Shown piece after piece: positions 6,773-51,658 of a DNA stretch of 63,086 nt. The notes under the pieces are model-generated. The model did no database searches and had not been told where the DNA came from. It worked only from the letters and a program-made list of their open reading frames with translations. Location of the stretch: NCBI GenBank assembly GCA_964491085.1, contig CAZBFB010000046.1, positions 1 to 63,086 of the forward strand. The letters run 5' to 3'. This stretch comes from an uncultured Gammaproteobacteria bacterium. Its GTDB lineage: Bacteria; Patescibacteriota; Patescibacteriia; CAZBFB01. The position numbers and the translations under genes were made by a program. Positions within the stretch are counted from its first letter, which is position 1. Every line of letters begins with the position of its first letter.

Positions 6773-7714
6773 ATGAAATCATTGGTATCAATAATTGTTC
6801 CCCTCTATAACGAACAGCGATCGCTCGTTGAGTTGTGTCGTCGGATTGAGGCGGCTATGGCCGGTTTGACGGAGCGCTATGACTACGAATTGATGTTGGT
6901 TGATGACGGCAGTAGTGACGAGAGTGATCGGGCTTTGGCAGAGTTGGCGCAAACGAATAGTCGGGTGAAGCCGATTGTCTTTTCGCGTAACTTTGGCAAA
7001 GAAATGGCCATGTCGGCCGGGTTGATGAACGCTCACGGTCAGGTGGCGATTATCCTGGACGGTGATCTGCAACATCCGCCGGAATTATTACCGGAATTTT
7101 TACAGCGTTGGGAACAAGGCGCGGAGGTAGTGGTCGGGGTGCGTAAAACAAATCAGGGTGAAGGCATGATCAAACGCGTCGGATCGTGGTTGTTTTATCG
7201 CATCATGAAGCACATCGCCGAAATTGATTTGCTGCCGAACGCCACAGATTTTCGGTTGTTGGATCGTGCGGTGATTGACGAGTTTAATCGGTTTACCGAA
7301 CGTAACCGTATGACGCGCGCGTTGATTGATTGGCTCGGATTCAAGCGGGCCCATGTTTATTTTGACGCGCCGCGCCGCGCCGACGGTCAAGCGGGATATT
7401 CAATCAGAAAATTAGTGCGTCTGGCGACGGCGAGCTTTGTTTCCTTGAGTTTGTTTCCGTTGAAATTGGCCGGCTATCTCGGAGTGATCATTATTATCGT
7501 GGCCACCGGTTTCGGCGGATTCATGGTGATTGATAAATATGTTTTGCATGACCCCTGGGGATTTGATTTTTCCGGCACGGGTTTGCTCGCGATCATGATC
7601 CTTTTTTTGGTCGGCGTGGTGTTGGCCTGCCTCGGCTTGATCGCCTTGTACATCGCGCACATCCACAGCGAAGTAATCAATCGGCCGATGTATATTGTGC
7701 GGAAGTCAAAGTGA
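6773..7714 (+). CDS. GT2 polyprenyl-phosphate glycosyltransferase (GtrB/ArnC/DPM1-like)
   Basis: VSIIVPLYNE..., DDGSSD, DGDLQHPP, plus two C-terminal TM helices. This is the classic GtrB/ArnC architecture. Confidence 0.8.
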   Translation: MKSLVSIIVPLYNEQRSLVELCRRIEAAMAGLTERYDYELMLVDDGSSDESDRALAELAQTNSRVKPIVFSRNFGKEMAMSAGLMNAHGQVAIILDGDLQHPPELLPEFLQRWEQGAEVVVGVRKTNQGEGMIKRVGSWLFYRIMKHIAEIDLLPNATDFRLLDRAVIDEFNRFTERNRMTRALIDWLGFKRAHVYFDAPRRADGQAGYSIRKLVRLATASFVSLSLFPLKLAGYLGVIIIIVATGFGGFMVIDKYVLHDPWGFDFSGTGLLAIMILFLVGVVLACLGLIALYIAHIHSEVINRPMYIVRKSK

Positions 7715-8704
7715 TGATTTTTTGCCTTCAGACAAAGATAATCGTGCGATATCCGTTTGTACCATCATTCGTACCAAATCAGGGAAAGCAATCGTGGGAC
7801 TCCAATTGAGTTGGGTACGCGCTTTTGTGGAATCACCGTAATTTGCCCACAGCTCAGCGGGTCTTTTAAATTGACTATCGACACGGACGAACGGTTGCCA
7901 ATTATCTATCCCTACCGATGTAAACGCGATCTCAAGAAAATCTTTTAATGAGTGGGTTTCTCCGGTACATATAATATAATCATCCGGTAGCTTCGCCTGG
8001 AGCATACGCCACATCGCGTCAACATAATCTCCCGCAAATCCCCAGTCCCGTTTTGTGTCGAGATTGCCCAATGTTAGTTCACGGGTCATACCCAGTTTTA
8101 TTTTTGCCACACCGTCTGTAATTTTTCGCGTCACAAATTTTATATTTCTCAACGGACTTTCATGATTAAATGTAATGCCGTTTACGCCGAAGAGTCCATA
8201 ACCTTCTCTGAAATTTTTTACCAACCAATACGCGGCAACTTTTGAAACCGCATAAGGACTCCTTGGGGCAAGGGGTGTTTTTTCCGAGATAGAACCCTCT
8301 TGATTGCCAAACATCTCGCTGCTAGACGCCTGGTAATACTTTGTGTGGGGGGAGAGGTTTTTAATGGCATTTAGCAGGTGAAGGGTTCCCATGGCGTTTA
8401 CTTCCATGGTTAATGCGTTTTGTTCCCACGATGAGGCAACTGAAGACTTAGCTGCCAGATTATAAACTTCAGTGGGCTGTATTTGTGATATGAGTTCGCG
8501 GAGGCCGACACTGTCGGTCATATTGCCAAATACAAATTTGATTCGATCAGTAATGCCGAGGTAATCCGTAGTATAACCGCCATCGGTTTGTTTGCGATGA
8601 GTAAGCCCGTATACGATGTATCCTTTTTCTAAAAGAAATTTTGCCAGGTAAGGGCCATCCTGTCCCTGGATTCCGGTAACGAGCGCAATGTTAGGAGTAG
8701 ACAT
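7706..8704 (-). CDS. gmd: GDP-mannose 4,6-dehydratase (copy 1)
   Basis: ALVTGIQGQDGPYLAKFLLEKGY, YNLAA, SSSEMFG and SPYAVSK. Its 3' end overlaps the convergent GT2 gene by 9 nt. Confidence 0.85.
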   Translation of the reverse strand: MSTPNIALVTGIQGQDGPYLAKFLLEKGYIVYGLTHRKQTDGGYTTDYLGITDRIKFVFGNMTDSVGLRELISQIQPTEVYNLAAKSSVASSWEQNALTMEVNAMGTLHLLNAIKNLSPHTKYYQASSSEMFGNQEGSISEKTPLAPRSPYAVSKVAAYWLVKNFREGYGLFGVNGITFNHESPLRNIKFVTRKITDGVAKIKLGMTRELTLGNLDTKRDWGFAGDYVDAMWRMLQAKLPDDYIICTGETHSLKDFLEIAFTSVGIDNWQPFVRVDSQFKRPAELWANYGDSTKARTQLNWSPTIAFPDLVRMMVQTDIARLSLSEGKKSSL

Positions 8705-8712
8705 AGTAAAAG

Positions 8713-9816
8713 TTAAAAAATAGCCCGCGCTATTGCGGCATATGCCGCTTGGAACGTATACCGGCGGCTATCGTTCCATGCCGCAACACAATAACGCTTG
8801 TATGTTTCATTATCATGGAGAAGCTGAATAACATTGCAAGCAAGTGTTTCCGGATTATTCACTTTGCATACAATACCAGTAACGCCATCTTTGCAAGAAT
8901 CCCGTAAGCCATCAACATTATAGACGATTGCGGGCGTGCCTTGGCTATTAGCTTCGGTTACAATCAGACCCCAACCCTCCTTTACTGAGGTTGCTGCAAT
9001 AATGTGTGCTTTACTCATGAGTTCGAGTTTTTTTGCATGACTTACGCTTCCCCAATACATGATGTCATTTTTGCATGGTAATGATTGCAGTTGATTTAAG
9101 AAGGAATTAGCATATGACCCGCACCCTGATCCTGCAATCCATAACTGTAATTCAGGTATATGTTTTTTTGCAAGTAGGTATGCTTGTAAGACGTGATGGG
9201 GCCTCTTCATTTTTCTCAGTGAGCCAACGTAGAGAAGAACCGGTTTCCCAAATTTTTTTTGCTGGCGCAATGTTTCCACCGAGAGAGGCGGTGTTTCTAG
9301 TCCAATAGGGAATACACAGATATTAGTTGTAACATAGCCGTAGTGTATTAAATCTTGTTTTGTGCTTTCTGATTCAGTAAGCACAAAACGATTTTTGAGG
9401 CTGCGAAGATAGAGAGGTTCAAGGAGATATCCGAGTATATTAAGGGGAAAAGTCATTTGATAAAACCAAATATTATGGCAGAGTTGATAGATAAGCAGGA
9501 TATTTTTTTCTTGCACATACCATTTTAAAAAAAATGGTATAGTATTGACCTCGTCTATCGCTACATCAGCCCAGCCTTGTAAATGCTTTTTGTAGTATTG
9601 GTATGCTCGCAGGTATACGCTCCATTGATTTCCCAGCCGGACGATTTTATATCCATTGACATGCGCCTCGGCTGCTGAGCCGGGAAATCCTGTGACAATA
9701 AAAATTACATTATGACCATGCTGGACCAATTGGCTCGCAATACCCTCATTAACCTTTTCGGCTCCGCCCGCAAGCGGATGTGCGCTGTCTTTCCATGTAA
9801 ACCAGAGAATATTCAT
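8713..9816 (-). CDS. GT4-family (GT-B fold) glycosyltransferase
   Basis: C-terminal SVKEGWGLIVTEANSQGTPAIV (EX7E-type motif); 367 aa. Confidence 0.75.
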   Translation of the reverse strand: MNILWFTWKDSAHPLAGGAEKVNEGIASQLVQHGHNVIFIVTGFPGSAAEAHVNGYKIVRLGNQWSVYLRAYQYYKKHLQGWADVAIDEVNTIPFFLKWYVQEKNILLIYQLCHNIWFYQMTFPLNILGYLLEPLYLRSLKNRFVLTESESTKQDLIHYGYVTTNICVFPIGLETPPLSVETLRQQKKFGKPVLLYVGSLRKMKRPHHVLQAYLLAKKHIPELQLWIAGSGCGSYANSFLNQLQSLPCKNDIMYWGSVSHAKKLELMSKAHIIAATSVKEGWGLIVTEANSQGTPAIVYNVDGLRDSCKDGVTGIVCKVNNPETLACNVIQLLHDNETYKRYCVAAWNDSRRYTFQAAYAAIARAIF

Positions 9817-9891
9817 AGTTTGAAATATATCAAACTATGGCATGCCGATCAAATGGTCAAGGTGTATGCTGTTTTAGGCAACCACAGGTGA

Positions 9892-9920
9892 TTGACAGCT
9901 AAAATGATGTATGCTATAAA
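9892..9920 (+). promoter_or_regulatory. Putative promoter: TTGACA, 17-nt spacer, TGc-TATAAA
   Basis: Consensus -35 with an extended -10, upstream of the GC-rich three-gene island. Confidence 0.5.
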
Positions 9921-9949
9921 GTAACAAAACCAAGTCATAACGATTTGAT

Positions 9950-10540
9950 TTGATAAACCATGGCTCATTGAAAAAAAAGAGGTGCATCTTGGATATTCTA
10001 GCACGCAGTTATACCGAGGACGGCTATCAACCCATTCCGGCGGTACGTCTGTCGGATGACGAATACGGCCAAGGACTCCAGTGTTTCGCGCCGGCGTGTA
10101 GCGATGTGGTGCCGATTGACGTCGAGCGGAAAGTCATTTACCTCGCGCGTCGAGCGGCAAAGCCGATGACGGGGTGGTGGTGGATCGGTGGTCGCATGGC
10201 ACCCGACGATACCAAAGAAGCGGCCGCGGCCAGAAATTTTCAGCGCGAAACGAGATTGGTAATTACTGAAGACCGTCTCAAGTTGGTGGCGGTTTTCGAC
10301 TACCGCTGGAAAGATCGGGCACAGTCGCCGACGGAGATCGGTTGCCACATGGTCGCCTACACTTTCACCGTGGAACTCATGGCGGCAGAGTTGGCGACTC
10401 TTTCCGGCAATCTCGATCAGCAGGAATACGAGGCCGGGACTGGCCTGTCTGCGTTCAATCGCGAGCGACTGGTTGAAGAAAAAGTTTTTCCGGTCATTCT
10501 CGATTTCTACGATCGCGTGTTCCCGGCCGTAGCGGTTTGA
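9950..10540 (+). CDS. Nudix-fold protein, GDP-mannose mannosyl hydrolase (WcaH/NudD)-like, with a degenerate Nudix box
   Basis: KPMTGWWWIGGRMAPDDTKEAAAARNFQRETRL parallels [34 protein letters not shown] of WcaH (recalled from memory). The likelier start is TTG 9989, preceded by AAGAGG at 9977-9982. Confidence 0.45.
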   Translation: MINHGSLKKKRCILDILARSYTEDGYQPIPAVRLSDDEYGQGLQCFAPACSDVVPIDVERKVIYLARRAAKPMTGWWWIGGRMAPDDTKEAAAARNFQRETRLVITEDRLKLVAVFDYRWKDRAQSPTEIGCHMVAYTFTVELMAAELATLSGNLDQQEYEAGTGLSAFNRERLVEEKVFPVILDFYDRVFPAVAV

Positions 10541-10589
10541 TCGGCTAGGTTTTCATCCACCACAACACAAACTGCACAGGAGGAGAGTC

Positions 10590-11240
10590 ATGAAAAGAAT
10601 CGTGGCGTTAGTGGGTGGTCATATCCTCGCGGATACGGCTGGGTTTCGTACCAGCACGTATACTCCGGCCGATCTCGCCAATCCTTACGGGATTTTTGGA
10701 GACAACCTACGGGGAGAAGCTTCGGCAGTGTTGTATCGAGCAGCCCCCGAAAGGACGCAGGTGGTCGTGCTCGGGGGAGTGACACCGCTCCATAAGGAGA
10801 TGCCTGATGCGCCGCATCTTTCGGCCGTTATCAAAGAGGAAATGATCGCGGCGGGAGTGCCGGCATGGGCGATTACCGAAATCGACATGGATCCGGTGTG
10901 CGGGACTTTCAGGCAACTGACGGAGTTGGCCAAGTTTTTGGCACAAACGAGACGTGTTGAAGATGTCCTGATTGTGTCAAACGATTGGCAGCTCCCCCGC
11001 ATAAAGGCCATGATCGTTTTTCGGGATGAGCTCATGCTCTTGAGAAGTCATGAGCCCAGGACGCGGTGTGTGGCGGCGGAAGACGTGCTGGTTGGCACGA
11101 ATCCGGAGCGTTGGTACGACGAAATTTGTGCGGCGTATAACACGCCGGCTGTTCGCGCCACAATTGCCAAGGAACTCAACGGCGCGAAGATGATCGCGGA
11201 CGGGACGTATCAGTTCCCTACGACCCAACCTGCTCGTTAA
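10590..11240 (+). CDS. DUF218 / YdcF-family protein
   Basis: VVVLGG..., AGVPAWAI, and LIVSNDWQLPR (the family's H/Q-x-x-R motif region). A strong AGGAGG lies 6 nt upstream of the ATG. Confidence 0.55.
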   Translation: MKRIVALVGGHILADTAGFRTSTYTPADLANPYGIFGDNLRGEASAVLYRAAPERTQVVVLGGVTPLHKEMPDAPHLSAVIKEEMIAAGVPAWAITEIDMDPVCGTFRQLTELAKFLAQTRRVEDVLIVSNDWQLPRIKAMIVFRDELMLLRSHEPRTRCVAAEDVLVGTNPERWYDEICAAYNTPAVRATIAKELNGAKMIADGTYQFPTTQPAR

Positions 11241-11256
11241 CCAAACGGAGGCGATA

Positions 11257-11745
11257 ATGACCAGAGAAGAATTGGTGGCTTTGCTCCAGGGGATAAATCC
11301 CAGACAGTTCCGGCCGTATGGGACGGTGCTCTTTGAAGCGTTGGCGCGATGGATGCCGCCGGTCGCGTTCGAAATGGTCGCGTTGCGACGCAACGGGGAT
11401 GACGTGGAAGTGTTTATGACCTTGCGCAGACCGGATGAGTCCTATGCCGATCAGTGGCACAGCCCCGGCTCGGTCATGCGCTATGGTGAGCAGGAGGAGG
11501 ATGTGTTCCGGCGATTGGCCGAGAGTGAGTTTGGCACGAATGACTTGGGCCAGCCGGTTCTGGTGGGGGTGTTCAATAACACGACTGAAGAACGCGGACA
11601 CTTCTATTGCCCCGTGTATCTTTGCCAGATCGGCGCCACTTCCATGGGGAGATGGTTCCGAGTGGACGATCTGCCTGCCAACACCGTCAGGCACCATCGC
11701 GAAAAAATTATCCCGATCGCGTTGCGTGCCTTCAACCAGCGCTAG
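11257..11745 (+). CDS. Nudix hydrolase (WcaH-like arrangement)
   Basis: WHSPGSVMRYGEQEEDVFRRLAESEFG approximates the Nudix box GX5EX7REUXEEXGU. GGAGG lies 5 nt upstream of the ATG. Confidence 0.55.
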   Translation: MTREELVALLQGINPRQFRPYGTVLFEALARWMPPVAFEMVALRRNGDDVEVFMTLRRPDESYADQWHSPGSVMRYGEQEEDVFRRLAESEFGTNDLGQPVLVGVFNNTTEERGHFYCPVYLCQIGATSMGRWFRVDDLPANTVRHHREKIIPIALRAFNQR

Positions 11746-11762
11746 TGCTACGCGCTATTTCT

Positions 11763-11800
11763 GAACTCTTTTTTCGCTACGAGCGGAGAAAGAGTTTTTT
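11763..11800. terminator. Rho-independent terminator between convergent genes
   Basis: Stem aactcttt / aaagagtt with an inner cgct/agcg pairing, followed by a T run and attttat. Confidence 0.55.
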
Positions 11801-12380
11801 ATTTTATACCAAAATCATCCGATTCCGGTCGAGTCAGCCAGGCCGCGAGCGATGAGGCGTTGGCGTCTCGGGGAGACAGATTAGGGTTTTCTATCGGCCA
11901 GGTGATGCCGATAGCTGGATCATTCCAGATTATATTTGATTCGCCTAGTGGATTGTAGAGGGCGGTATATTGATACTCAACATCAACCCCGTCGCCTCGA
12001 GTACAAAATCCGCTGGCAAATCCAGGAGGCACAAAAAGCATTTTTTTATTTTTGGAGGAGAGTTCGGTGCTGAACCATTTTTTGCAGGTAGCAGATTTTT
12101 TTCGAATATCAACTGCCACCACAAATGCTTGTCCGGAAATGATTCGGATTAGCTTGCCTAGTGGTTTGTCCCATTGGAAATGTAGTCCTCGTAGTACGCC
12201 CGGTTTAGAAAAGCTGTGATTCGCTTGCACAAAGACGGCATCAATTCCTTGCGCAGCTAGAGCGTCTTGCCGATATATCTCAAGAAAAAATCCGCGCTCA
12301 TCGGCCATGATTTTGGGTTCTATCACGACCAGGCCGTTAAGAGGGGTTGGTGTAATTTGCATCATAGGTAATGAGCGCAA
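11799..12380 (-). CDS. rfbC: dTDP-4-dehydrorhamnose 3,5-epimerase
   Basis: ERGFFLEIYR, GVLRGLHFQ, VAVDIRK and PPGFASGF motifs. The start may instead be the ATG at 12365 or 12362. Confidence 0.85.
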   Translation of the reverse strand: MRSLPMMQITPTPLNGLVVIEPKIMADERGFFLEIYRQDALAAQGIDAVFVQANHSFSKPGVLRGLHFQWDKPLGKLIRIISGQAFVVAVDIRKKSATCKKWFSTELSSKNKKMLFVPPGFASGFCTRGDGVDVEYQYTALYNPLGESNIIWNDPAIGITWPIENPNLSPRDANASSLAAWLTRPESDDFGIK

Positions 12381-12383
12381 GCA

Positions 12384-13457
12384 TTACGAGCTGGGATGCG
12401 CGCGATACCAGTTAATGGTTGCTTCTAGACCTTGAGGCACATCATGCGCCGGCCGCCAGGTAAAATGTGAAAAGGTTTTAGTCATATCTGCTTGCCAAGC
12501 ATCACTATCATAGGCAACCGAATGGAAACTACCCCATTGCATTGGGCTGGTTGATTTTGTTAAATGCAGAGTTGTCTTTACGACTTCCGCCAGCGTTGTT
12601 TTTGTGCCCGTTCCCACCTGGAAAATTTCGCCAGGATAGTGGGCCGCTTTTGTCATTGCTTCCATGTATATATCAACGATATCTTCAACAAAAATAAAAT
12701 CGCGGGCGATGGTTGGTCTGGTTAGTGACACGGCTTCACCCCGGAGCGCATGTACGATCAGTTCATACACCAGCCGTCCGCGTTCCATGGCCGGTCCGTA
12801 GGGACTAAAAATACGGAAAGTAATAATCGGTTTTTTTTCTTGACGCGCCAGCGCTTGTCCATAAAGTGTCGAGGCCAGTTTAGTGATGCTATAGACCTCT
12901 CCCGGCTCACACCGATCCGTTTCTCGAACCGGATGATCTTGTACGCCGTACTCCAGAAAACTACCGGTGTTTATAAAAAATTTATAATCAATTTCCTGTA
13001 GGGCGCGCAACAGATTGGCCGTACCTAAAAAATTTACTCGCATCAGATCATCGTCTGGGGCATTGATCCCGCTTTTGATGTTTGATGCGGCCAAATGAAA
13101 CACGCCGCTAGGTTGTAGATCGCGTACTAATTTTTCAATCCCCAGGATATCAGTGAGGTCGCCATAACAGCACTGCACATGAGGCAGGAGGTCCGTAATC
13201 CGCCATGTATCTGTTGAATGTTTTAACAGGATCGCGACCGGACAGTTAGCACCGACGAGTCGACGGAGTAGAGCCGAGCCCATGAAACCAGCGGCGCCAG
13301 TTATAAAGATAGGTTGTGCGGCTGTAATCACAAAGTATGGCGTAAATGATTTATTATTTATACAGGTAAATATAGGTAGGGTCAAGTTAGGTTGTGCATA
13401 TTTGGTATGTTGCCAATGGTAATAATGGTGTGCTATAGTTTTTTTAATTCTTAACAT
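12384..13457 (-). CDS. NAD-dependent epimerase/dehydratase (extended SDR)
   Basis: FITGAAGFMGSAL and YSITK catalytic motifs. The roughly 45-aa N-terminal extension looks non-native; a GTG at 13331 just before the Rossmann motif is a plausible true start. Confidence 0.75.
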   Translation of the reverse strand: MLRIKKTIAHHYYHWQHTKYAQPNLTLPIFTCINNKSFTPYFVITAAQPIFITGAAGFMGSALLRRLVGANCPVAILLKHSTDTWRITDLLPHVQCCYGDLTDILGIEKLVRDLQPSGVFHLAASNIKSGINAPDDDLMRVNFLGTANLLRALQEIDYKFFINTGSFLEYGVQDHPVRETDRCEPGEVYSITKLASTLYGQALARQEKKPIITFRIFSPYGPAMERGRLVYELIVHALRGEAVSLTRPTIARDFIFVEDIVDIYMEAMTKAAHYPGEIFQVGTGTKTTLAEVVKTTLHLTKSTSPMQWGSFHSVAYDSDAWQADMTKTFSHFTWRPAHDVPQGLEATINWYRAHPSS

Positions 13458-13478
13458 TTAAGTAGAGTTTATAGGGAT

Positions 13479-14531
13479 ATGATTATCAACAGTGATGTAG
13501 AAAAAAAAGAGCAAGAGTATTTTTGGAAGAACAGACGTGTACTTATTACTGGCGCCAATGGTTTTCTGGCTAGTTGGGTGACTAAAGAATTGCTTGGTTA
13601 TGGCGCGCATATTGTTTCTTTGGTATTTGCCAAGAATCCGCTCTCTATTTTTGAGCAGGAACGTTTAGATAAAACCACCGAAACTATTTATGGCGATGTG
13701 CTGGATTTTGCGTTGCTAAAACGTATGATTGAGACCTATAAAATCCAAACCGTGTTTCATCTTGGCGCTCAGCCAATTTGCGCGGCCGCCGAAGCTGATC
13801 CGCTGACAACACTCGATATCAATATTAAAGGGACCTATCATGTACTGGAAGCGGTGCGGCAGGTTTCTCCGACCACGCATGTTTTAGTGGCTTCTTCTGA
13901 TAAGGCCTATGGTATTCACGAACAGTTGCCCTATGAAGAGCACTATCCCTTACACGGAGAGTATCCATATGAAGTGTCAAAAACATGCGCTGATTTAGTC
14001 AGTATGATGTATTGGCATACCTATAAGATTCCGGTTTGTGTAGTGCGTTGCGGTAATTTTTATGGCGGTGGGGATGCGCATTTTTCACGTTTGATACCCA
14101 ACACAATTAAATGTGCCTACTATAATAATCCCCCACTCCTTATTAGAAATGATTTACGGGATTATCTTTATGTTGAAGATGCTGCGCGGGGCTATGTATT
14201 GCTGGCTGAAAAAATGGCACGCGGCGCGGTATTAGGTGAGGCTTTTAATTTTGGCACCGAACAACCGCGCACGGTGGTAGATGTGATGGAAACGATCTTA
14301 CGTTTGATGGGTAAGCCACATTTACGGCCCCAGATTTCAGACAAGCCACGACTGGGAATTCCTAGCCAGTATCTTTCTTATAAGAAAGCCAAGCAGTTTT
14401 TGGGGTGGGAGCCACTAGTTTCATTTGAAGACGGTTTACAAAAAACGATTGCTTGGTATAGCGATTATTTTAATAAAGGAGTGCCAGCATCTTTACCGGT
14501 ATTTAGTATTCATCATCAGGACCTCGTATGA
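13479..14531 (+). CDS. NDP-hexose (CDP-glucose-type) 4,6-dehydratase, module 1
   Basis: FWKNRRVLITGANGF N-terminus typical of RfbG-like enzymes; SSDKAYG, YPYEVSK. It is collinear with the ORF at 17885..18859. Confidence 0.7.
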   Translation: MIINSDVEKKEQEYFWKNRRVLITGANGFLASWVTKELLGYGAHIVSLVFAKNPLSIFEQERLDKTTETIYGDVLDFALLKRMIETYKIQTVFHLGAQPICAAAEADPLTTLDINIKGTYHVLEAVRQVSPTTHVLVASSDKAYGIHEQLPYEEHYPLHGEYPYEVSKTCADLVSMMYWHTYKIPVCVVRCGNFYGGGDAHFSRLIPNTIKCAYYNNPPLLIRNDLRDYLYVEDAARGYVLLAEKMARGAVLGEAFNFGTEQPRTVVDVMETILRLMGKPHLRPQISDKPRLGIPSQYLSYKKAKQFLGWEPLVSFEDGLQKTIAWYSDYFNKGVPASLPVFSIHHQDLV

Positions 14532-15763
14532 AAAATAAAAAAAGCAAAGTCAGTCAGCAAACGATGCGCGTAAGTTATGCTAAGGCGGTGTTTGGTAAAG
14601 AAGAAATTGAGAGTGTAAACAAAGTACTTTCTACGCCGATGATTGTGGCCGGGCCTTATGTGAAAGAGTTTCAACAAAAAGTAGCCGGACTGTTTGCTAA
14701 AAGTTATGGAGTAATGGTGAATTCTGGTTCTTCGGCCAATCTTATTGCCTTCGAATTATTAAGATTACCAGCCGGATCAGAGGTTATTACCCCGGCGCTT
14801 ACCTTTAGCACTACCGTGGCGCCGATTTTACAGAAAGGATTAACTCCGGTACTAGCCGATGTGGACGAAGGTACTTATCAAATAAATATAGATCAGGTCG
14901 AGCAGTTGATTACCAAAAAAACGCGAGCCCTGATGATTCCATCTTTGATTGGAAATATACCAGATTATCCACGGTTGCGCCGAATTGCTAACAAGCATAA
15001 GCTGTATCTCATTGAGGATTCGTGCGATACTTTAGGACCGACCATTGCGGGAAAATCTACCGGGGTATATTCCGATATCTCAACGACCAGTTTTTATGGA
15101 TCGCATATGATTACTGCTGGGGGAAGCGGGGGAGTGATTTCCGTAAATAATAAGGCCTGGTATGAGCGAGCGATGATGTTGGTGGGGTGGGGGCGTTCCT
15201 CGGCAAAAAACGAGACGGAAAATCCGGCCGAGCGTTTCAATGTTTCGCTGTATGGAGTGCCTTACGATCGTAAATTTATTTTTGAAGAGATCGGATATAA
15301 TTTTCAATCAACCGATATTAATGCCGCGTTTGGTCTGGCGCAGTTGAATCGGTTGAAAGAATTTTCCAATCGCCGGAAAAGTAACTTTCGCACCTTGCTG
15401 GCTTTTTTTAAACGTTATGAGCAATTTTTTATTTTACCAAAACAAAATCCTTTGGCCGAAACTCCCTGGTTGGCATTTCCGCTTACTTTAAAAGAGGGAG
15501 CGCCGTTTACGCGCATTGATTTTGTGAAATATCTCGAAGGATGCAACATACAAACCCGGCCAATTTTTACCGGCAATATCCGGCGGCAACCCGCTTATCG
15601 GTCTAGCGCTCTGAAGACCCGGCGGGAAGGTTATCCGGTAGCTGATTATATTATGCGCCATGCTTTGCTGATTGGCTGTCATCAAGGTATGGGTGAACCG
15701 GAAATTAACTATATAAAAGAAGCGTGTCTTAATTTTTTTAAACGACTAAAACGTGCACGATAA
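14528..15763 (+). CDS. DegT/RfbH-family PLP/PMP enzyme with His at the catalytic Lys position (sugar 3-dehydratase-like), module 1
   Basis: SFYGSHMITAGGSGG (His where aminotransferases have Lys). YDRKFIFEEIGYNFQSTDINAAFGLAQLNRL resembles RfbH. There are no Cys residues in the GWGRSSAKNETENPAERF segment. Confidence 0.7.
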   Translation: MKNKKSKVSQQTMRVSYAKAVFGKEEIESVNKVLSTPMIVAGPYVKEFQQKVAGLFAKSYGVMVNSGSSANLIAFELLRLPAGSEVITPALTFSTTVAPILQKGLTPVLADVDEGTYQINIDQVEQLITKKTRALMIPSLIGNIPDYPRLRRIANKHKLYLIEDSCDTLGPTIAGKSTGVYSDISTTSFYGSHMITAGGSGGVISVNNKAWYERAMMLVGWGRSSAKNETENPAERFNVSLYGVPYDRKFIFEEIGYNFQSTDINAAFGLAQLNRLKEFSNRRKSNFRTLLAFFKRYEQFFILPKQNPLAETPWLAFPLTLKEGAPFTRIDFVKYLEGCNIQTRPIFTGNIRRQPAYRSSALKTRREGYPVADYIMRHALLIGCHQGMGEPEINYIKEACLNFFKRLKRAR

Positions 15764-15776
15764 TATCGGGACAGTT

Positions 15777-16342
15777 ATGCGTTCCGTCGACATTTTGATT
15801 ACCGGCATTACCGGGTTTATTGGTCAGCATTTAGCCAATGTTTTGCAGGCCCAAGGCGCCAATGTTACCGGTATTACGAGCCAGTCAGATAAGGCGTCTC
15901 GCGGGGTTGCTTGTATTGATTTACGTGACCATGCCCGTCTTCGTGAACATATTCAAACCATTCGTCCCGCGATTATTTTTCATTTAGGAGCGCATGTGGC
16001 TCTTGATAGGAACTACGAGACCGCGCGTAGTTGTGTGGAAGCCAATATTCAAGGGACGTTTAATTTACTCGATGCCGTTACTTCTTTGTCAGCTACGGTT
16101 AAACGCGTTGTGTTTTTAAGTACGGAAGAAGTGTACGGTAGCAGTCCGATACCGTATCAAGAAGATCAGCCAGTATTTCCGCTATCAAGTATGGTGCGAT
16201 TCCAGAACGGATTGGCGAGGCGGCTGTTTGGCAGTCGGACATTACCAAAGCTAATAAATTATTGCGGTGGACGCCTTTAATCTCTTTGACAGACGGTCTT
16301 ACAAAAACGATTGCCTATTATCGAGAGGCGCTCTTAACATGA
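15777..16342 (+). pseudogene. Decayed SDR epimerase/dehydratase gene with an internal deletion and frameshift
   Basis: The N-terminal roughly 140 aa (ITGITGFIGQHL ... EDQPVFPLS) are in one frame. The C-terminal tail (IPERIGEAAVWQSDITKANKLLRWTPLISLTDGLTKTIAYYREAL*) is in another frame. The roughly 130 aa catalytic middle is missing. Confidence 0.75.
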
Positions 16343-16349
16343 AGATATT

Positions 16350-17162
16350 ATGAGTTTACTGGTGACGGTGGTGGTGCCCACTTGTAATTCAGCCCGATTT
16401 TTGGAACGCTGTCTGGCGAGCATTAAGAATCAGACGTATTCTCATATTGAATTGATTGTGGTTGACGAGTATAGTGTTGATGCTACGCTTGCGATCGCCA
16501 AACGATATGCTAGCGCGATATATTCCGGCGGACCAGAGCGCAGTATTAAAAGAAACATCGGGATTGAACAGGCCAAAGGCGAGCTCGTGTTTATTATTGA
16601 TTCCGACATGGTACTTAGTTCTTTGGCAGTGGCGGAAGGCGTTGCGGCGATGAAGGACGAGTCAGTTGGCGGGGTTGTGATGCCGGAAATTTCTCAAGGC
16701 GAAGGCTTTTGGGCGCGTTGCATTACCCTTGATCGGGCGCTTCGATTTTGTGGTAATACACCTACCATTGGTGAAGCCGCGCGGTGTTTTCGTAAAGCCG
16801 AAGTTAAAAAAATAGGCGGGTATGATCCGGAGATAGTTGGTGCCGAAGATTGGGATTTGCACAACCGCATGGTACGCTTTGGACATTTTGTAAAAATTAA
16901 AGCGCCCATATACCATCAGGAAGGACGGGTATCACTTTACAAACGAATTAAGAAAAAGTATTATTACAGCCGATCGTTTCGTATCTATCTGAAACGATAT
17001 CCTAGGATTGCCGCGCTACAATTTTCTCCATTTAAGTGGGCGTATATTCGCGGCTTCTGTAGGGTTTTTAGACACCCCGCGCTGGGGATTGGCCTGATTA
17101 TTCTTAAGGGTGGAGAAGCGGTTGCTGGATTTGCGGGGTTGGTATTTTATCGTAAAGGATAA
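16350..17162 (+). CDS. GT2-family glycosyltransferase
   Basis: VVVPTCNSARFLERCLASIKNQTY, VVDEYSVD and IIDSDM motifs. Confidence 0.8.
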   Translation: MSLLVTVVVPTCNSARFLERCLASIKNQTYSHIELIVVDEYSVDATLAIAKRYASAIYSGGPERSIKRNIGIEQAKGELVFIIDSDMVLSSLAVAEGVAAMKDESVGGVVMPEISQGEGFWARCITLDRALRFCGNTPTIGEAARCFRKAEVKKIGGYDPEIVGAEDWDLHNRMVRFGHFVKIKAPIYHQEGRVSLYKRIKKKYYYSRSFRIYLKRYPRIAALQFSPFKWAYIRGFCRVFRHPALGIGLIILKGGEAVAGFAGLVFYRKG

Positions 17163-18872: not shown

Positions 18873-20087
18873 ATGCCAACGCGGAAAAAAATTGATCAAC
18901 AAATCGGTGTGGGGTCGGCTCAGATTAGTGATCGCGAAAAACAGTATGTCAATGAAGTATTGAATAGTAATCGTCTTTCGCACGGGAAATTTTTGAGTGC
19001 GTTCGAATCACAATTTAGTGAGCTGCATGGTTGCAAATATGCCATGATGATGAACAGCGGGACCAGCGCGCTGCGTGTGGCCATCGCTTGCTTAAAAGAA
19101 TGCGAAGATTGGCAGGACGGTGATGAGGTGCTGGTTCCGGCTATTACTTTTGTGGCCACTTCTAATGTTGTCATTGACCATGGATTGAGACCGGTTTTTG
19201 TAGACGTTGATTCTCGTACTTATAATATTGACCCGGCAAAAATTGAAGAGAAGATAACGAAGCGTACCCGCGCTATCATGCCGGTGCATCTGTTTGGACA
19301 GCCCTGCGCTATGGATCCGATTATGGAAATTGCCCGTCGCCATAATCTTAAGGTGATTGAGGATTCGTGCGAGACGATGTTTGTTAAGTATAGAGGGAAA
19401 CCGGTTGGCAGTTTTGGCGATATTTCCTGTTTTTCAACTTATGTGGCGCACCTGCTGGTAACTGGTGTTGGTGGACTTGCTCTGACAAACAATGATGAGT
19501 ATGCGGTAGTAATTAAAAGTTTAATGAATCACGGTCGCGATACGATCTATCTGCATATCGATGATGAAAAAAATCTTGATAAACAAGTATTTTTTCAATT
19601 AGTGCAACGGCGTTTCCGCTTTGTGCGTTTGGGGTACAGTTTTCGCGCTACTGAAATGGAAGGCGCCTTGGGTCTGGGACAGCTTGAAATCAAAGATAGC
19701 ATTCTTAAAACTCGGCAAGAAAATGCGCGTTATTTTATTGAGCGACTGAAACCGTATGAACGCTACTTGCAGTTACCTTGGCATCCCGAGGACGTAGAGC
19801 ATGCTTTTATGATGTTTCCGATTGTAGTGCGTGCCGGTGCGCCCTTTACCAAACAAGACCTGATTTTTTTCTTGGAAGAGAACAATATTGAAACTCGAGA
19901 CATGTTGCCACTTTTGAATCAACCCATCTACATCAAACTTTTTGGCGCGCTGGAAGATAAGTATCCGGTTGCCAAATGGATTAATAATAATGGTTTTTAT
20001 ATTGGTTCTCATCAGGGACTGTCTCCAGCAGAGCGTGAGTATATCATCGCCACCTTTATAGAATTTTTACATCATTATGACAGCTAA
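18873..20087 (+). CDS. DegT/DnrJ/EryC1-family enzyme with His at the catalytic Lys position, module 2
   Basis: MMNSGTSAL and EDSCE motifs; [14 protein letters not shown] (His in place of Lys). The start is taken at ATG 18873 (MPTRKK). Confidence 0.7.
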
Positions 20088-21138
20088 CGGAAAAAAAATA
20101 GCGCTCATTACCGGCATCACCGGTCAAGACGGTTCTTATTTGGCTGAATTATTATTGTCGAAAGGTTATCAAGTTAATGGTATTATTAGGCGTTCCAGCT
20201 CATTCAATACGGGTCGGATTGATCATATTTTTCAAGACCCCCACGAACAGGATTATCAATTCCGGCTATGGTATGGAGATTTAGCCGATAGTGGCGCCGT
20301 GATAAAATTATTAGCCAAAACACAACCTGATGAAATTTATAATTTAGCCGCCCAGAGTCATGTGCGGGTTTCGTTTGAAATTCCCGAATATACCGCCAAT
20401 ATTGTGGGACTAGGGACACTTCGTTTACTTGATGCGGTGCATAGTTTGGGTTTGTCAACGAAATTTTACCAAGGATCATCCAGTGAGATGTTTGGCGCAA
20501 CGCCACCCCCGCAAAAAGAGGATTCAATGTTTTTGCCGAGAAGCCCCTACGCGGCGGCGAAGGTGTTTGCTCACCATATGGCTATTAATTATCGTGAAGC
20601 ATACGGCATATTTTCTTGTGCCGGTATTTTATTTAATCACGAAAGTCCGCGGCGAGGTGAAACATTTGTCACAAAAAAAATTACGCGTGCTATTGCGAAA
20701 ATTTTGGCGAAACGGCAGGAGAAACTTTATTTGGGAAATCTTGAGGCGCGCCGTGACTGGGGGTATGCTCCCGAGTATGTGGAAGGAATGTGGCGTATGT
20801 TGCAGCAAGATAAACCAGACGATTATGTGCTTGCAACCGGTGAAGCGCATTCGGTGCAGGAATTTCTGGAGGCGGCCTTTACCGCTGTCGGGCTTGACTG
20901 GAGGATGTATGTAGAAGTTGATCAACGCTATTTCCGTCCGACGGAAGTAGAACATTTAATTGGTAATCCGCGGAAGGCAAAGGAGGTACTCGGGTGGTCG
21001 GCTAAGGTAACATTTAAAGATCTTGTGCAAATCATGTTGATTGATGATCTTAAAAAAGAGGGACTGGATCCCACGATCTACGAACTTCCCGGGCAACACC
21101 CCTTGGCTTCGCGGTTGCACGAGTTAGTGATTTCTTAG
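20077..21138 (+). CDS. gmd: GDP-mannose 4,6-dehydratase (copy 2)
   Basis: [54 protein letters not shown]. Confidence 0.9.
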
Positions 21139-21158: not shown

Positions 21159-22145
21159 ATGTCTACATTTTGGAATAATAAACGAGTATTGGTAACCGGC
21201 GGCGCGGGTTTTATTGGTAGTCATTTAGTGGAACTACTGCTGGCACAGGGTGCACGGGTGCGCGTGCCGGTGCGCACCAGCAATAAGCTCCATTCTTTTC
21301 TTGACGGTGTACATAATCAAGTTGAGTTCATGGCGGCTGATTTGTTGCGGTCTGAAGATTGCGTTCGGGTGTGTCAAGATCAAGACATCGTCATGCAACT
21401 GGCGGCTAAAGTGGGGGGGATAGAATATAATATTGCTCATCCCGGTTCAATTTTTCGAGATAATTTGTTGTTGTATATGAATGTGCTTGAAGCGGCGCGA
21501 GCGGCGGCTGTGGAGCGGTTTCTGGTTGTTAGTTCGGCTTGCGTGTATCCTCGTTTTTGTACGATCCCCACCCCGGAAGAAGAAGGATTTAACGAGCGTC
21601 CGGAACCCACCAACGAAGGATATGGCTGGGCAAAACGCATGGAAGAATTTCTGGCGGAAGCTTATCATCGTGAATATGGAATGAAGCTGGCGATTGCGCG
21701 TCCTTATAATGCCTATGGTCCGCGGGATAATTTTGACCCGGCTTCCTCGCACGTTATTCCAGCGCTTATCCGCCGTATTGTGGCGGGGGAAAATCCACTT
21801 CAGGTGTGGGGTTCAGGCAAGCAAAGCCGTTCGTTTTTATATGTGGAAGATTTTGCGCGCGGTCTTATGGAGATTGCTGAAAAGTATGCCATCGCTGATC
21901 CAATCAATCTCGGCGCCGATGAGGAAATCACCATAGCGGAAACCGTCAAGCTGATTTCCGAGATTTCCGGTATTCGTCCGGCGGTTCATTTTGACACTTC
22001 AAAACCAGAAGGTCAGCCGCGGCGGAAGTGTAACACGAGAAAAGCCAAGGAAAAAATTGGATTTGAAGCCCAGGTATCTTTGCGTGATGGTCTTAAAAAA
22101 ACAATTAATTGGTATATTAATGAACAGCGAATCTCTAAAAGCTAA
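21159..22145 (+). CDS. NAD-dependent epimerase/reductase (extended SDR), possibly a GDP-4-keto-6-deoxyhexose reductase/epimerase
   Basis: VLVTGGAGFIGSHL and YGWAKRMEE (YxxxK). It lies immediately downstream of gmd. Confidence 0.65.
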   Translation: MSTFWNNKRVLVTGGAGFIGSHLVELLLAQGARVRVPVRTSNKLHSFLDGVHNQVEFMAADLLRSEDCVRVCQDQDIVMQLAAKVGGIEYNIAHPGSIFRDNLLLYMNVLEAARAAAVERFLVVSSACVYPRFCTIPTPEEEGFNERPEPTNEGYGWAKRMEEFLAEAYHREYGMKLAIARPYNAYGPRDNFDPASSHVIPALIRRIVAGENPLQVWGSGKQSRSFLYVEDFARGLMEIAEKYAIADPINLGADEEITIAETVKLISEISGIRPAVHFDTSKPEGQPRRKCNTRKAKEKIGFEAQVSLRDGLKKTINWYINEQRISKS

Positions 22146-23384: not shown

Positions 23385-24005
23385 ATGAAAAAACTGATTA
23401 TTTCTCCCCATGTAGATGATGAAGTTTTGGCTTGTGGTGGCATTCTTGATAAGGAGTCATTTGTCTATTATTGCAGTATTGATGAAAGTAAGGTGGCACC
23501 TGATCCGGGGCATCGTCTAGCGGTTCCCGATCGAGAGAAAGAGTTGCGGGATTGCGCTAGTTATCTTCAATTTGATGTGGAAATTAACTATGCCAGCAAG
23601 GTTAATTTTTTAGTGGAGCAGGAAGTGTTGACCAATCTTGAGCGATTGATTAATAGCGTTCGTCCGGAGGCAATTTTTATACCGCATCCCGGATACAATC
23701 AGGATCACCGCACGGTATTTAGTGCGGCGCAAATTGCCTTACGGCCGCATGATAAGAATTTTTTTGTAAAAAAAGTACTGATCTATGAGGGCGTGCACGA
23801 TTTTTTTTGGTCGTATGATATATTTCGGCCTAATTATTTTGTACCGATTGATATTGAGCGTAAATTAAAAGCGTACGCACTTCAACCATCACAAGTTCGG
23901 GGGATGCGCAGTCCTGAGATGTTGCGTGATTTGGCGCGTTTACGCGGCGCCATGAGTAATACGGAATACGCGGAAGCTTTTTCAGTTTTACGCTGGGTAG
24001 AATAA
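23385..24005 (+). CDS. PIG-L / LmbE-family N-acetylglucosaminyl deacetylase
   Basis: LIISPHVDDEVLACGG zinc-binding signature and a later HPGYNQDH. Confidence 0.8.
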   Translation: MKKLIISPHVDDEVLACGGILDKESFVYYCSIDESKVAPDPGHRLAVPDREKELRDCASYLQFDVEINYASKVNFLVEQEVLTNLERLINSVRPEAIFIPHPGYNQDHRTVFSAAQIALRPHDKNFFVKKVLIYEGVHDFFWSYDIFRPNYFVPIDIERKLKAYALQPSQVRGMRSPEMLRDLARLRGAMSNTEYAEAFSVLRWVE

Positions 24006-24035
24006 TCTTGAGAAACCATACAGCAAATAAAATAT

Positions 24036-24986
24036 ATGAAACATATCTTAGTGGTGGGCGGAGCGGGGTATTTGGGCGGGGGGGTAACTGATTTATTAAT
24101 GCATCGTCCGGATTGTGATTTCCGGGTGTATGATAATTTGTTGTATGAAGATTCCTATCGCAAGGATGTTCATTTTATTTATGGCGATGTGCGGGATGAG
24201 AATAAATTATTACCGCATCTGCAGTGGGCTGACTGTGTCATTTGGCTCGCGGCGATCGTAGGCGACGGCGCCTGCACACTTGATCCTGACTTAACGGTGC
24301 AGATAAATCAAAATACAGTCAAGTGGCTGACGGAACATTTTGCTGGTCGGATTATTTTTACTTCTACTTGTAGCGTTTATGGCGCGCAAGCGGGCGAGCT
24401 TGAAGAACAGTCAGTGGTAAATCCTCTCTCGCTTTATGCCGGTACCAAACTAAAAGCCGAAGAATATTTGGCAGACAAAAATGCCTTGACCTTTCGGTTG
24501 GGTACGCTGTTTGGTGTGAGCGACCTGTTTTCGCGTATACGCATGGATTTGGTGGTGAATCTTATGACCGTACGGGCGCATAAGCTGGGAAAAATTAGTG
24601 TATTCGGCGGAGAACAATTCCGGCCGGTACTGAATGTTAAAGACGCGGCGCGAGCCATTGTTGATGCAATTGAATCGCCGCACATCGGGGTCTACAACTT
24701 GCTCAAACAGAATATACGGATGATTGATTTGGCGTATCAAATTCGCATGCATTATCCCGATATTGAGATTGAACGAACCGAAACACCGTTTCAAGATACG
24801 CGTAATTATCGTGTATCATGGGAAAAAGCTAAGAATGTGTTGGGGTTTGTACCGAAACATCCCATTGACAGCGGGATTGAGGATTTGAAGAATTTATTGG
24901 ATAATTCACGCGTAAAAAATCTTGACCATTTACGACACTCTAATCATCTTTTTTTAAAGGAATTATTGACAAAAAAGAGCGAATAA
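24036..24986 (+). CDS. NAD-dependent epimerase/dehydratase (extended SDR)
   Basis: ILVVGGAGYLGG, STCSVYG, SLYAGTK. Confidence 0.75.
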   Translation: MKHILVVGGAGYLGGGVTDLLMHRPDCDFRVYDNLLYEDSYRKDVHFIYGDVRDENKLLPHLQWADCVIWLAAIVGDGACTLDPDLTVQINQNTVKWLTEHFAGRIIFTSTCSVYGAQAGELEEQSVVNPLSLYAGTKLKAEEYLADKNALTFRLGTLFGVSDLFSRIRMDLVVNLMTVRAHKLGKISVFGGEQFRPVLNVKDAARAIVDAIESPHIGVYNLLKQNIRMIDLAYQIRMHYPDIEIERTETPFQDTRNYRVSWEKAKNVLGFVPKHPIDSGIEDLKNLLDNSRVKNLDHLRHSNHLFLKELLTKKSE

Positions 24987-24998
24987 ATTAACTGATAA

Positions 24999-25451
24999 AT
25001 GGAATATAAAATGCCGTTCATTATTCAGGGAGCAGTGGCGGTTGACGATCGTGGCACGGTGCGCTTCGTCAATGATTTTGATTTAAGCCAGGTGAAACGT
25101 TGTTATTTGGTTGATAATTTTTCGGTTGATATGATACGCGCTTTTCATGGTCATCAGCGCGAGGCAAAATATGTGTATGTGGTTTCCGGATCGGCAATTG
25201 TGGCGGCCGTTGAGATGGATGATGTGCACACCCCCAGCAAAACGAATACAGTGCAACGCTTTGTTTTATCAGCCCAAAAACCAACCGTACTATGCATACC
25301 ACCCGGCTACGCCAACGGATTTAAGCCCCTGGAGTCAGGCACAAAAATTATGTTTTTTTCTTCGGCCGGACTTAAGGAATCAGAAGGAGATGATTATCGT
25401 TTTCCCGCTGACTATTGGGGAAGCGAGGTGTGGGCAGTTGAAAATCGTTAA
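24999..25451 (+). CDS. RmlC-like cupin (sugar epimerase / ketoisomerase-like)
   Basis: 150 aa. DDRGTVRFVN, RAFHGHQREAKYVYVVSG and PPGYANGF form a cupin pattern. Confidence 0.5.
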   Translation: MEYKMPFIIQGAVAVDDRGTVRFVNDFDLSQVKRCYLVDNFSVDMIRAFHGHQREAKYVYVVSGSAIVAAVEMDDVHTPSKTNTVQRFVLSAQKPTVLCIPPGYANGFKPLESGTKIMFFSSAGLKESEGDDYRFPADYWGSEVWAVENR

Positions 25452-25454
25452 GAT

Positions 25455-28208: not shown

Positions 28209-28215
28209 AACGCAT

Positions 28216-29067: not shown

Positions 29068-29130
29068 TATGTGGAGAAAACGGCGACCCGCCGAAACGTT
29101 TTTTGGTGGCAGTCTCTGTAGCTACAGCAT

Positions 29131-29961: not shown

Positions 29962-29979
29962 CCACTAACCATATCCGCT

Positions 29980-31023: not shown

Positions 31024-31062
31024 TGGTAGGGTAGCGCATAATTAAATAGCACATGATTTAGT

Positions 31063-32924: not shown

Positions 32925-32951
32925 GCGGTTTATTTGAAGTGTATTTAAACT

Positions 32952-42447: not shown

Positions 42448-42458
42448 CCAATATTTAT

Positions 42459-51608: not shown

Positions 51609-51627
51609 GCTCTCTCCTGAAGTAATT

Positions 51628-51658
51628 AAACCGCTCCGACTCACGTCGGAGCGGTTTT
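51628..51658 (+). terminator. Rho-independent terminator
   Basis: 13-bp stem aaaccgctccgac / gtcggagcggttt with loop tcac and a short T tail, 20 nt after the stop. Confidence 0.6.

Follow-up and report, generated by a model that had tools for sequence, protein, structure and literature searches.

The present analysis concerns a three-gene cassette on contig CAZBFB010000046.1 of an uncultured bacterium, examined over a stretch of 63,086 nucleotides (63 kb) that is referred to here as the window. The cassette (9989-11745, plus strand) is one transcription unit with its own promoter, a leader, three genes each led by a Shine-Dalgarno (SD) site, and a terminator, and it sits counter-oriented inside a 40-kb cell-surface glycan locus. 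Its genes encode, in order, a Gmm-like Nudix protein (Nudix1), a divergent DUF218-like protein, and a second, more divergent Nudix protein (Nudix2), all three soluble. The families of all three occur in uncultured groundwater bacteria, in loci for nucleotide sugars. An earlier reading of the sequence without database searches (the original prediction) had called these domains Nudix, DUF218, and Nudix, and Pfam scores, profile searches, and, for DUF218, an hhalign match to SanA agree with those calls.

Anatomy of the cassette and its locus

The gene order around the cassette (Table 1) is gmd (-), GT4 (-), cassette (+), rmlC-like (-), short-chain dehydrogenase/reductase (SDR) (-), and both Pfam and this order accord with the earlier description of a cassette that divides a minus-strand run into SDR-rmlC and GT4-gmd parts. 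The gmd and GT4 neighbors have a guanine plus cytosine (G+C) content of 0.42-0.44 and the RmlC-like and SDR neighbors one of 0.46-0.47, and none of the four has an SD site. Within the cassette all three predicted pairs of SD sequence and start codon were located as described, i.e. AAGAGG-6-TTG at 9989, AGGAGG-6-ATG at 10590, and GGAGG-5-ATG at 11257. The promoter that had been claimed for the cassette is present as TTGACA and TATAAA boxes, which align with boxes upstream of Nudix1 homologues; it was missed by the promoter scanner because that program demands T as the last base of the -10 box, and the boxes, which are near consensus, were read directly. The terminator, also claimed beforehand, is a 16-pair hairpin with a T run at 11763-11797, after Nudix2, and was the top-scoring terminator-like site in 7000-14500 (7.5 kb scanned). 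An Rfam search of 9000-12500 gave no real match. Between GT4 and the cassette promoter there is an inverted repeat at 9814-9839 (13+13 nt without spacer, CATAGTTTGAAAT/ATATCAAACTATG, 92% complementary) that covers the GT4 start codon and could be a candidate operator.

Table 1. Coordinates of the cassette, its adjacent genes, and its presumed partner pathways in the window
Feature	Position	Strand	Details
Sigma-70-type promoter	9892-9920	+	TTGACA 9892-9897, 17-nt spacer, TG 9912-9913, TATAAA 9915-9920; read from sequence
Leader hairpin of Nudix1 family	9929-9954	+	RNAalifold, weak evidence
SD site AAGAGGTG	9977-9984	+	4 nt before Nudix1 TTG start; duplex -7.1 kcal/mol
Nudix1, Gmm-like, modified box RNFQRE	9989-10540	+	183 amino acids (aa); PF00293 34.3 bits
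DUF218-like protein, divergent, soluble	10590-11240	+	216 aa; PF02698 24.7 bits
Nudix2, divergent, degenerate box RLAESE	11257-11745	+	162 aa; PF00293 22.7 bits
Intrinsic terminator closing the cassette	11763-11807	+	16-pair stem, then T run TTTATTTTAT
GDP-mannose 4,6-dehydratase (gmd) paralogue	7706-8704	-	Pfam; divergent neighbor of cassette
GT4 glycosyltransferase	8713-9816	-	Pfam; divergent neighbor of cassette
RmlC-like cupin	11799-12380	-	Pfam; convergent neighbor of cassette
SDR	12384-13457	-	Pfam; convergent neighbor of cassette
Presumed Nudix1 partner pathway: Gmd	20077-21138	+	62-67% identical to gmd of loci L008, L013, L105
Presumed Nudix1 partner pathway: SDR reductase	21159-22145	+	60% identical to gene after gmd in L008
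Presumed DUF218-like/Nudix2 partner module	23385-34906	+	Pfam; 50-76% identical to modules of L002, L004, L005

The presumed partner pathways lie 8-18 kb downstream of the cassette within the one glycan locus. The two GDP-mannose 4,6-dehydratase paralogues of the window are 45% identical, and it is the second that is related, at 65-67% identity for L008 and L013, to the gmd found beside Nudix1 homologues in other loci (designated here by L numbers). The long downstream module encodes PIG-L, SDR, cupin, RmlD-like, GT2, formyltransferase (27354-28208), and FkbM methyltransferase proteins, two further GT2s, and a DUF268-like protein. In L002, L004, and L005 the DUF218 gene lies inside this module, whereas in the window it is 12-17 kb away and grouped with Nudix1 and Nudix2. 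To judge from these homologies, the cassette brings together the minor accessory genes of two or more sugar pathways whose other genes lie downstream, and this is the chief reason to regard it as functionally part of the locus and not as a random insertion. The original prediction had raised the question of whether the triplet recurs as a unit. The full Nudix-DUF218-Nudix triplet was in none of ~35 related loci; a DUF218 and Nudix2 pair was found once, in L002, and in profile searches over all fetched loci no other locus except L002 held more than one of the three families.

The host is probably a deep lineage of the candidate phyla radiation (CPR). No close relative of it is evident: the identity of the LeuRS to that of any of 185,579 GTDB species genomes does not exceed 56%, and ten host proteins that were looked up were all unnamed singletons at 90% identity. 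The four best LeuRS matches are Patescibacteria/CPR with Clostridia only 1-2 points behind, and it is because this gap is so small that we call the host only probably CPR.

Base composition and expression signals

No other 1757-bp window of the stretch reaches the G+C of the cassette (0.565); non-overlapping windows of this length have a mean of 0.459, a standard deviation of 0.034, and a maximum of 0.543 (z = 3.15 for the cassette). In tetranucleotide usage, too, the cassette is farther from the remainder of the sequence than any such stretch (z = 4.5), and G+C at third codon positions (GC3) is 0.62, 0.62, and 0.72 for Nudix1, the DUF218-like gene, and Nudix2, with all other genes at 0.35-0.60. 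The 60-nt hand counts of G+C on which the composition claim had first been based were exact (35/60 and 38/60 inside the cassette, 25/60 and 25/60 in the flanks). There are two background classes in the window, namely housekeeping genes at its ends (Suf, LeuRS, KsgA, UvrA, GroEL; G+C ~0.48-0.54) and the 40-kb glycan locus (0.39-0.47), and the pooled codon usage of the cassette was therefore compared with each class separately. Codon bias of single genes is confounded by gene length and was replaced by this pooled, size-matched block test. Against the housekeeping genes the pooled codon bias of the cassette was 0.350, compared with 0.223±0.029 (maximum 0.290) for equal-size housekeeping blocks; against the glycan genes it was 0.408, compared with 0.228±0.050 (maximum 0.351) for equal-size glycan blocks. 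The cassette is thus compositionally foreign to both the housekeeping and the glycan genes of the window. Sliding G+C, tetranucleotide, and codon analyses all show it as extreme, and a composition like that of the background, which the original prediction had named as evidence that would count against it, is clearly not what was found.

Expression signals set the cassette apart as well. Duplex energies with the anti-SD sequence are -7.1, -10.3, and -9.5 kcal/mol for Nudix1, the DUF218-like gene, and Nudix2, and the other 50 genes of the window have a mean of -2.0 kcal/mol, not stronger than the value that random 20-mers give (-2.8). Energies of -6 kcal/mol or lower occur in only 2 of these 50 (LeuRS and KsgA; cassette versus others, Mann-Whitney p = 0.003), in keeping with the earlier remark that most other genes have no obvious SD. 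The pattern extends to relatives. Across eight related loci it is often only the gene of a cassette family that has a strong SD, its 10-20 neighbors lacking one, and in L002 strong SD sites occur on cassette-family genes although the G+C of the locus is uniform. Outside the window, energies of -9 kcal/mol or lower were found in 12 of 22 close family members versus 20 of 244 other genes (Fisher p = 3e-7), each gene being given its best start within 40 codons. The caller of open reading frames (ORFs) chose the wrong strand in L098, L114, L115, and L119, which makes those rows of the SD contrast unreliable and the contrast itself therefore conservative. The literature found on Shine-Dalgarno sequences in Patescibacteria, judged from titles and abstracts, contained nothing on SD-bearing accessory genes.

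Close Nudix1 homologues share the SD sequence GGAGGTG and most of them a TTG start, and in 9 other loci a promoter of the form TTGAC[AG], 13 nt, ATG[CT]TA can be aligned ahead of the Nudix1 homologue. Between promoter and SD in this family RNAalifold weakly suggests a leader hairpin (AUCAAGYC...GRYUUGAU; 7 leaders, 7 pairs, 3 of them compensatory), with one pair broken in the window copy. Examples of these hairpins are found at 9929-9954 in the window, at ~9945-9965 in L008, and at ~3040-3058 in L105, and they had no Rfam match. The DUF218 gene is lone and counter-oriented in L002, L004, L005, and L123, as is the Nudix2 gene in L006.

The three protein families

There were 63 homologues of Nudix1 with 41-74% identity, mostly from CPR bacteria; among the named sources are Candidatus Kerfeld-, Sung-, and Niyogibacteria, along with metagenomes from groundwater. 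Some 40% of the family are 306-aa fusions with a C-terminal cupin (PF14667 and Cupin_2 matches), which we take to be a sugar-epimerase cupin of the CapF type, and in L013 this cupin is encoded as a separate gene. In L098 (1846-2781) the fusion is split into adjacent frame segments 1846-2331 and 2335-2781, which suggests a stop, a frameshift, or a sequencing error. The best match of Nudix1 in the PDB was E. coli GDP-mannose mannosyl hydrolase (Gmm; 1RYA). The sequence by itself reached E = 3e-4 and the profile of its family 1.1e-7, whereas the next family scored only 8e-4. Both Nudix proteins exceed the PF00293 gathering cut-off of 21.1. Against the NCBIfam Gmm model PRK15434 Nudix1 scored 29.1 bits, far below the cut-off of 146 although still its best family match, and Nudix2 scored 12 bits. 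The original prediction that both Nudix proteins resemble WcaH/NudD therefore stands for Nudix1, with the reservation of the NCBIfam score, and only loosely for Nudix2, which is generic and divergent, and neither protein counts as a member of the Gmm family itself. The gmd gene lies directly downstream of the Nudix1 homologue in L008, L013, and L105, and as a rule members of the family either adjoin gmd or carry the fused cupin. Together with the Gmm match and the two gmd paralogues in the window, this supports the link to GDP-sugars that had been proposed.

The canonical Nudix box GX5EX7REUXEEXGU is absent from both proteins (Nudix1 GGRMAPDDTKEAAAARNFQRETRL, Nudix2 GSVMRYGEQEEDVFRRLAESEFGT), and of the REUXEE glutamates only the last is kept. 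In this respect they resemble Gmm (NudD/WcaH of the E. coli colanic acid cluster gmd-fcl-gmm), a protein that like Nudix1 is linked to gmd in glycan clusters and that has a modified box retaining the Arg and the last Glu: RLTMAE in Gmm, RNFQRE in Nudix1, and RLAESE in Nudix2. Gmm splits GDP-mannose into GDP and mannose by attack at C1. Its GDP/Mg-binding residues D22, R37, and E70 correspond to D39, R55, and E87 of Nudix1, invariant in 36 homologues, and H102 corresponds to the nearly invariant H120. Unlike Gmm, Nudix1 has a 40-residue N-terminal extension, roughly 40% of its family are fused to a cupin, and only uncultured CPR-like bacteria have members of that family. Because these four residues are kept but Y103 and H124 are aligned to different residues, and because the NCBIfam score is only 29, the homology points to a protein that works like a GDP-sugar-binding Nudix protein and is not a Gmm equivalog.

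Nudix2 has 6 homologues and one more in L002, 1.8 kb from the DUF218 gene there. Its structural model has a predicted local distance difference test score (pLDDT) of 85 and a Nudix fold that matches hundreds of Nudix structures. Closest to the model are AraR and NrtR with their ligand-binding Nudix domains (template modeling (TM) score ~0.64, E ~2e-8, identity 16%), with Gmm ranking 17th. Bacteroides AraR and Shewanella NrtR have a degenerate Nudix box, as does Nudix2, which differs from them in having no DNA-binding domain; its N-terminus is modeled as two low-confidence helices. All homologues of Nudix2 occur in nucleotide-sugar or glycan loci except that of L122, a short contig where the homologue adjoins two rve-family transposase genes (117-2831). 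In L120 (289-1713) there are tandem Nudix2 paralogues, one at G+C 0.585 with an SD and one at 0.464 without. A second three-gene, GC-rich, SD-bearing run was seen in L007 (3654-5720), consisting of a His_Phos_1 phosphatase, a 201-aa protein of no named family, and a Nudix2 homologue, with G+C of 0.51, 0.48, and 0.59 versus ~0.41 for its sugar locus.

The DUF218-like protein scores under the Pfam cut-off for PF02698 (27.6 bits). A word-index search yielded 6 relatives at 48-54% identity, and an exhaustive profile search yielded 473 representatives; at E = 1e-25 to 1e-40 the family profile finds proteins that themselves score 46-73 bits on PF02698. An hhalign comparison with E. coli SanA gave a probability of 87.7% and E = 3.4e-6. 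SanA function requires a proposed Thr-His-Glu triad of T125, H149, and E182 (PMC12176290). The Thr is kept, with T125 aligned to T106 of the DUF218-like protein, and E182 is outside the aligned region with E164 as its likely equivalent by spacing. The wider family has the consensus YHLPR, the His being kept in relatives P0007 and P0087-89, and the clade of the window protein has an invariant GGVTPLH motif. An AlphaFold model (pLDDT 89) had no Foldseek match in the PDB below E = 1e-3, only generic Rossmann-like matches with TM < 0.4, and a PDB sequence search gave nothing significant. Searching the DUF218 alignment against GTDB species genomes found none, in a set that lacks both this genome and that of L002.

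Neighborhoods and fusions of this family point to sugars. In L002 and L005 the DUF218 gene is between the DUF268-like gene and the formyltransferase and PIG-L genes, in L004 it is within the corresponding module, and its neighbors in L123 are an SDR-cupin pair. Relatives are fused to Formyl_trans_N, CTP_transf_3, GNAT, and GFO_IDH_MocA domains, including one protein with the order CTP_transf_3-DUF218-GNAT. The DUF218 literature covers SanA, ElyC, and YdcF only, all of them linked to envelope glycan metabolism and homologous to the DUF218-like protein by profile; YdcF is moreover soluble and cytoplasmic, as is the window protein. The latter differs from this group in its lack of a membrane anchor, Gln134 in place of H149 of SanA, the sub-threshold Pfam score, and the GGVTPLH of its clade, and its gene is found in the context of nucleotide-sugar formyl/acyl pathways, not of peptidoglycan or enterobacterial common antigen. 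Mentions of DUF218 in a preprint on CBASS and in a paper on polymorphic toxins proved to be of DUF2188 and DUF2185. A reading of the cassette as a defense system was dropped when PADLOC gave only marginal generic Nudix matches.

Origin and possible roles of the cassette

On balance, and with modest confidence, we lean toward the cassette being a self-contained nucleotide-sugar accessory operon, compositionally foreign and most likely derived from gene exchange among CPR-like bacteria. The anatomy of the unit, its composition and expression signals, the membership of its proteins in their families, and the neighborhoods of the genes are directly shown. We infer the substrates, the catalysis, and the direction and timing of any transfer, and the biochemical roles are drawn from homology, fusions, and neighborhoods. 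Nudix1 would bind a GDP-hexose from the GDP-mannose 4,6-dehydratase route of the locus and hydrolyze it, so that the pool of this sugar is trimmed or cleared. The DUF218-like protein, whose subfamily appears tied to amino-sugar N-formyl/N-acyl and CMP-sugar pathways, might act on an intermediate of the downstream PIG-L/formyltransferase module, and Nudix2 may be a hydrolase for another nucleoside diphosphate (NDP) sugar or a ligand-binding subunit. The cassette would have arrived, or replaced older copies, through exchange in a pool of uncultured CPR-like bacteria that share glycan modules. There are hints of transfer in the relatives. Homologues of the cassette families are shifted in G+C relative to their hosts in L006 (0.50 vs 0.37), L007 (0.59 vs 0.41), L008, L105, L120, and L122; in L120 a foreign-looking Nudix2 paralogue stands beside a host-like one, and in L122 there are transposases next door. 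GC3 in the Nudix1 family spans 0.30-0.62 while that of the hosts spans 0.22-0.71. The cassette resembles genomic islets or "moron"-like insertions in polysaccharide loci in that its composition is shifted, it has a promoter and a terminator to itself, and it is oriented opposite to the operons around it. It differs from them in having no integrase, att-like repeats, insertion sequence elements, or phage context and in a gene content that matches the host locus functionally.

Several observations weigh against this explanation. No integrase, transposase, or flanking repeats were found at the cassette, where there are only short repeats at chance level, and viral contigs scanned with all three family alignments contained no relatives. 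The composition background was the 63-kb window alone, and when single genes are compared with length taken into account, Nudix2 alone stands out clearly in codon bias. Identities of the window DUF218 protein to those of L002, L005, and L004 are 54, 57, and 50%, and L002 and L005 are 69% identical to each other; the formyltransferase gives 58, 60, and 54%, with 78% for L002-L005, and GT2 and SDR follow the same order. Because the DUF218 distances run parallel to those of the module genes, among the four taxa compared, no separate donor lineage is visible, and contigs that carry relatives of the cassette genes also carry relatives of the neighboring glycan genes. The original prediction had called the cassette horizontally acquired and had named a phylogenetic affiliation shared with its neighbors as a point against that. 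The deviant composition speaks for acquisition, and the lack of mobility genes, flanking repeats, and phylogenetic incongruence speaks against it, with the shared affiliation seen in part, for the DUF218 distances and in the common contigs. Horizontal transfer is accordingly best described as plausible. Since homologues in many genomes keep the strong SD, the Nudix1 promoter, and the TTG start, these signals are partly traits of the families and not mere scars of a donor. Regarding function, Gmm Tyr103 aligns with Nudix1 M121 and the catalytic His124 with L142 (at a low-confidence alignment end), and the essential H149 of SanA aligns with Q134 of the DUF218-like protein. Because these residues appear not to be kept and the Nudix2 box is degenerate, any of the three proteins could be non-catalytic or could differ in chemistry.

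The same observations could be explained with no recent transfer at all, if the genes co-diverged with the glycan modules and if SD sites, promoters, orientation, and G+C are intrinsic to an SD-dependent, separately regulated class, in genomes otherwise poor in SD sites, that happens to be clustered here. This we consider somewhat unlikely. It would account for the strong SD sites in 12 of the 22 close family members outside the window (20 of 244 neighboring genes), for a Nudix1 promoter, GGAGGTG, and mostly TTG start kept across hosts whose neighboring genes range in G+C from 0.30 to 0.61, for a DUF218 gene that is lone and counter-oriented in four other loci, for the congruence of DUF218 pairwise distances with those of partner genes, and for SD sites without a G+C shift in L002. 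Regulation would not easily explain GC3 of 0.62-0.77 in hosts at 0.37-0.46 (the window, L006, L007, and L120), however, and GroEL and other likely highly expressed genes of the window show no such shift. Nor does it sit well with the presence of both a host-like and a foreign-like Nudix2 paralogue in L120, and the GC3 of the Nudix1 family, near 0.30-0.62 for hosts that range over 0.22-0.71, resembles incomplete amelioration after transfer.

Two further explanations seem much weaker. That the cassette is unrelated to glycans, being a house-cleaning Nudix pair (MutT-like or ADP-ribose-type) with a YdcF-like protein that landed by chance, is consistent with some weak sub-threshold NCBIfam and PDB matches to MutT-like and NadM-Nudix proteins. 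It is very improbable in view of the recurrence of all three families in nucleotide-sugar loci over ~35 contigs (exceptions are e.g. L010, with housekeeping genes, and L122, with transposases), the fusion of Nudix1 relatives to a sugar-epimerase-type cupin and of DUF218 relatives to sugar formyl-, acetyl-, and cytidylyl-transferases, and the absence of MutT-type glutamates from both Nudix boxes. A chimeric contig, with DNA of a higher-GC organism joined into the locus during assembly, might be suspected from the sharp G+C steps at ~9990 and ~11750 and the metagenomic source, and yet we regard it as extremely improbable: two mis-joins would have to frame an intact unit from promoter to terminator exactly, and both flanks are part of one coherent glycan locus. 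An independent Logan assembly of ERR4904393 (L001) matches 10201-16814 of the window at 100%, so the right-hand junction is no mis-join.

The conserved signals allow two readings, in which these genes either travel between genomes as units that provide for their own expression or represent a conserved class under separate regulation. A broader proposal, which we judge improbable but offer for consideration, is that SD-poor CPR-like bacteria keep a circulating pool of self-expressed, counter-oriented glycan accessory genes with SD-dependent initiation, in which the DUF218-like family is an unrecognized NDP-/CMP-sugar enzyme. For Nudix1 such an SD-dependent regime may comprise the extended -10 promoter, the leader hairpin, GGAGGTG, and the TTG start, and the DUF218-like family could then, for example, stand in as a non-orthologous enzyme for one that hydrolyzes nucleotide sugars.

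From gmm/wcaH it is already known that polysaccharide clusters can include accessory Nudix hydrolases, and the core idea is thus not new. Judging from the tools used and a literature search, three elements are apparently undescribed. One is the large family of Gmm-like Nudix proteins in CPR bacteria, in which fusion to a sugar-epimerase cupin is frequent. Another is the soluble subfamily of DUF218 proteins that neighborhoods and fusions tie to sugar formyl-, acetyl-, and cytidylyl-transferases, and the third is the recurrence of strong SD sites, with own promoters for Nudix1 relatives, in loci nearly without SD. The sugar link of DUF218 is a biochemical lead for a domain of unknown chemistry, even in SanA and ElyC of E. 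coli. If the SD pattern is true genome-wide, translation initiation in SD-poor lineages and gene flow in glycan loci become testable.

There were some other irregular genes in the window. A 175-aa ORF at 15753-16280 corresponds only to positions 1-135 of 240 in the profile of an SDR epimerase/dehydratase, which is its N-terminal half, and may be a truncated or frameshifted gene. After SufB, a SufD-like ORF (47559-48202) spans only a C-terminal portion of the SUFBD core (166 aa), and ahead of it is an ORF of 44 aa in a different frame; a frameshift, a pseudogene, or a SufD of unusually small size may account for the arrangement. At 50505-51644 the coding strand is uncertain, with a 367-aa "fn3" ORF (G+C of 0.40 and 0.54 at first and second codon positions) overlapping a 205-aa minus-strand ORF and a negative GC skew. 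At its end, the glycan locus has three large ORFs in 36897-45189 (873, 982, and 598 aa) that had no Pfam match and a strongly T-rich coding strand, and that probably encode membrane proteins.

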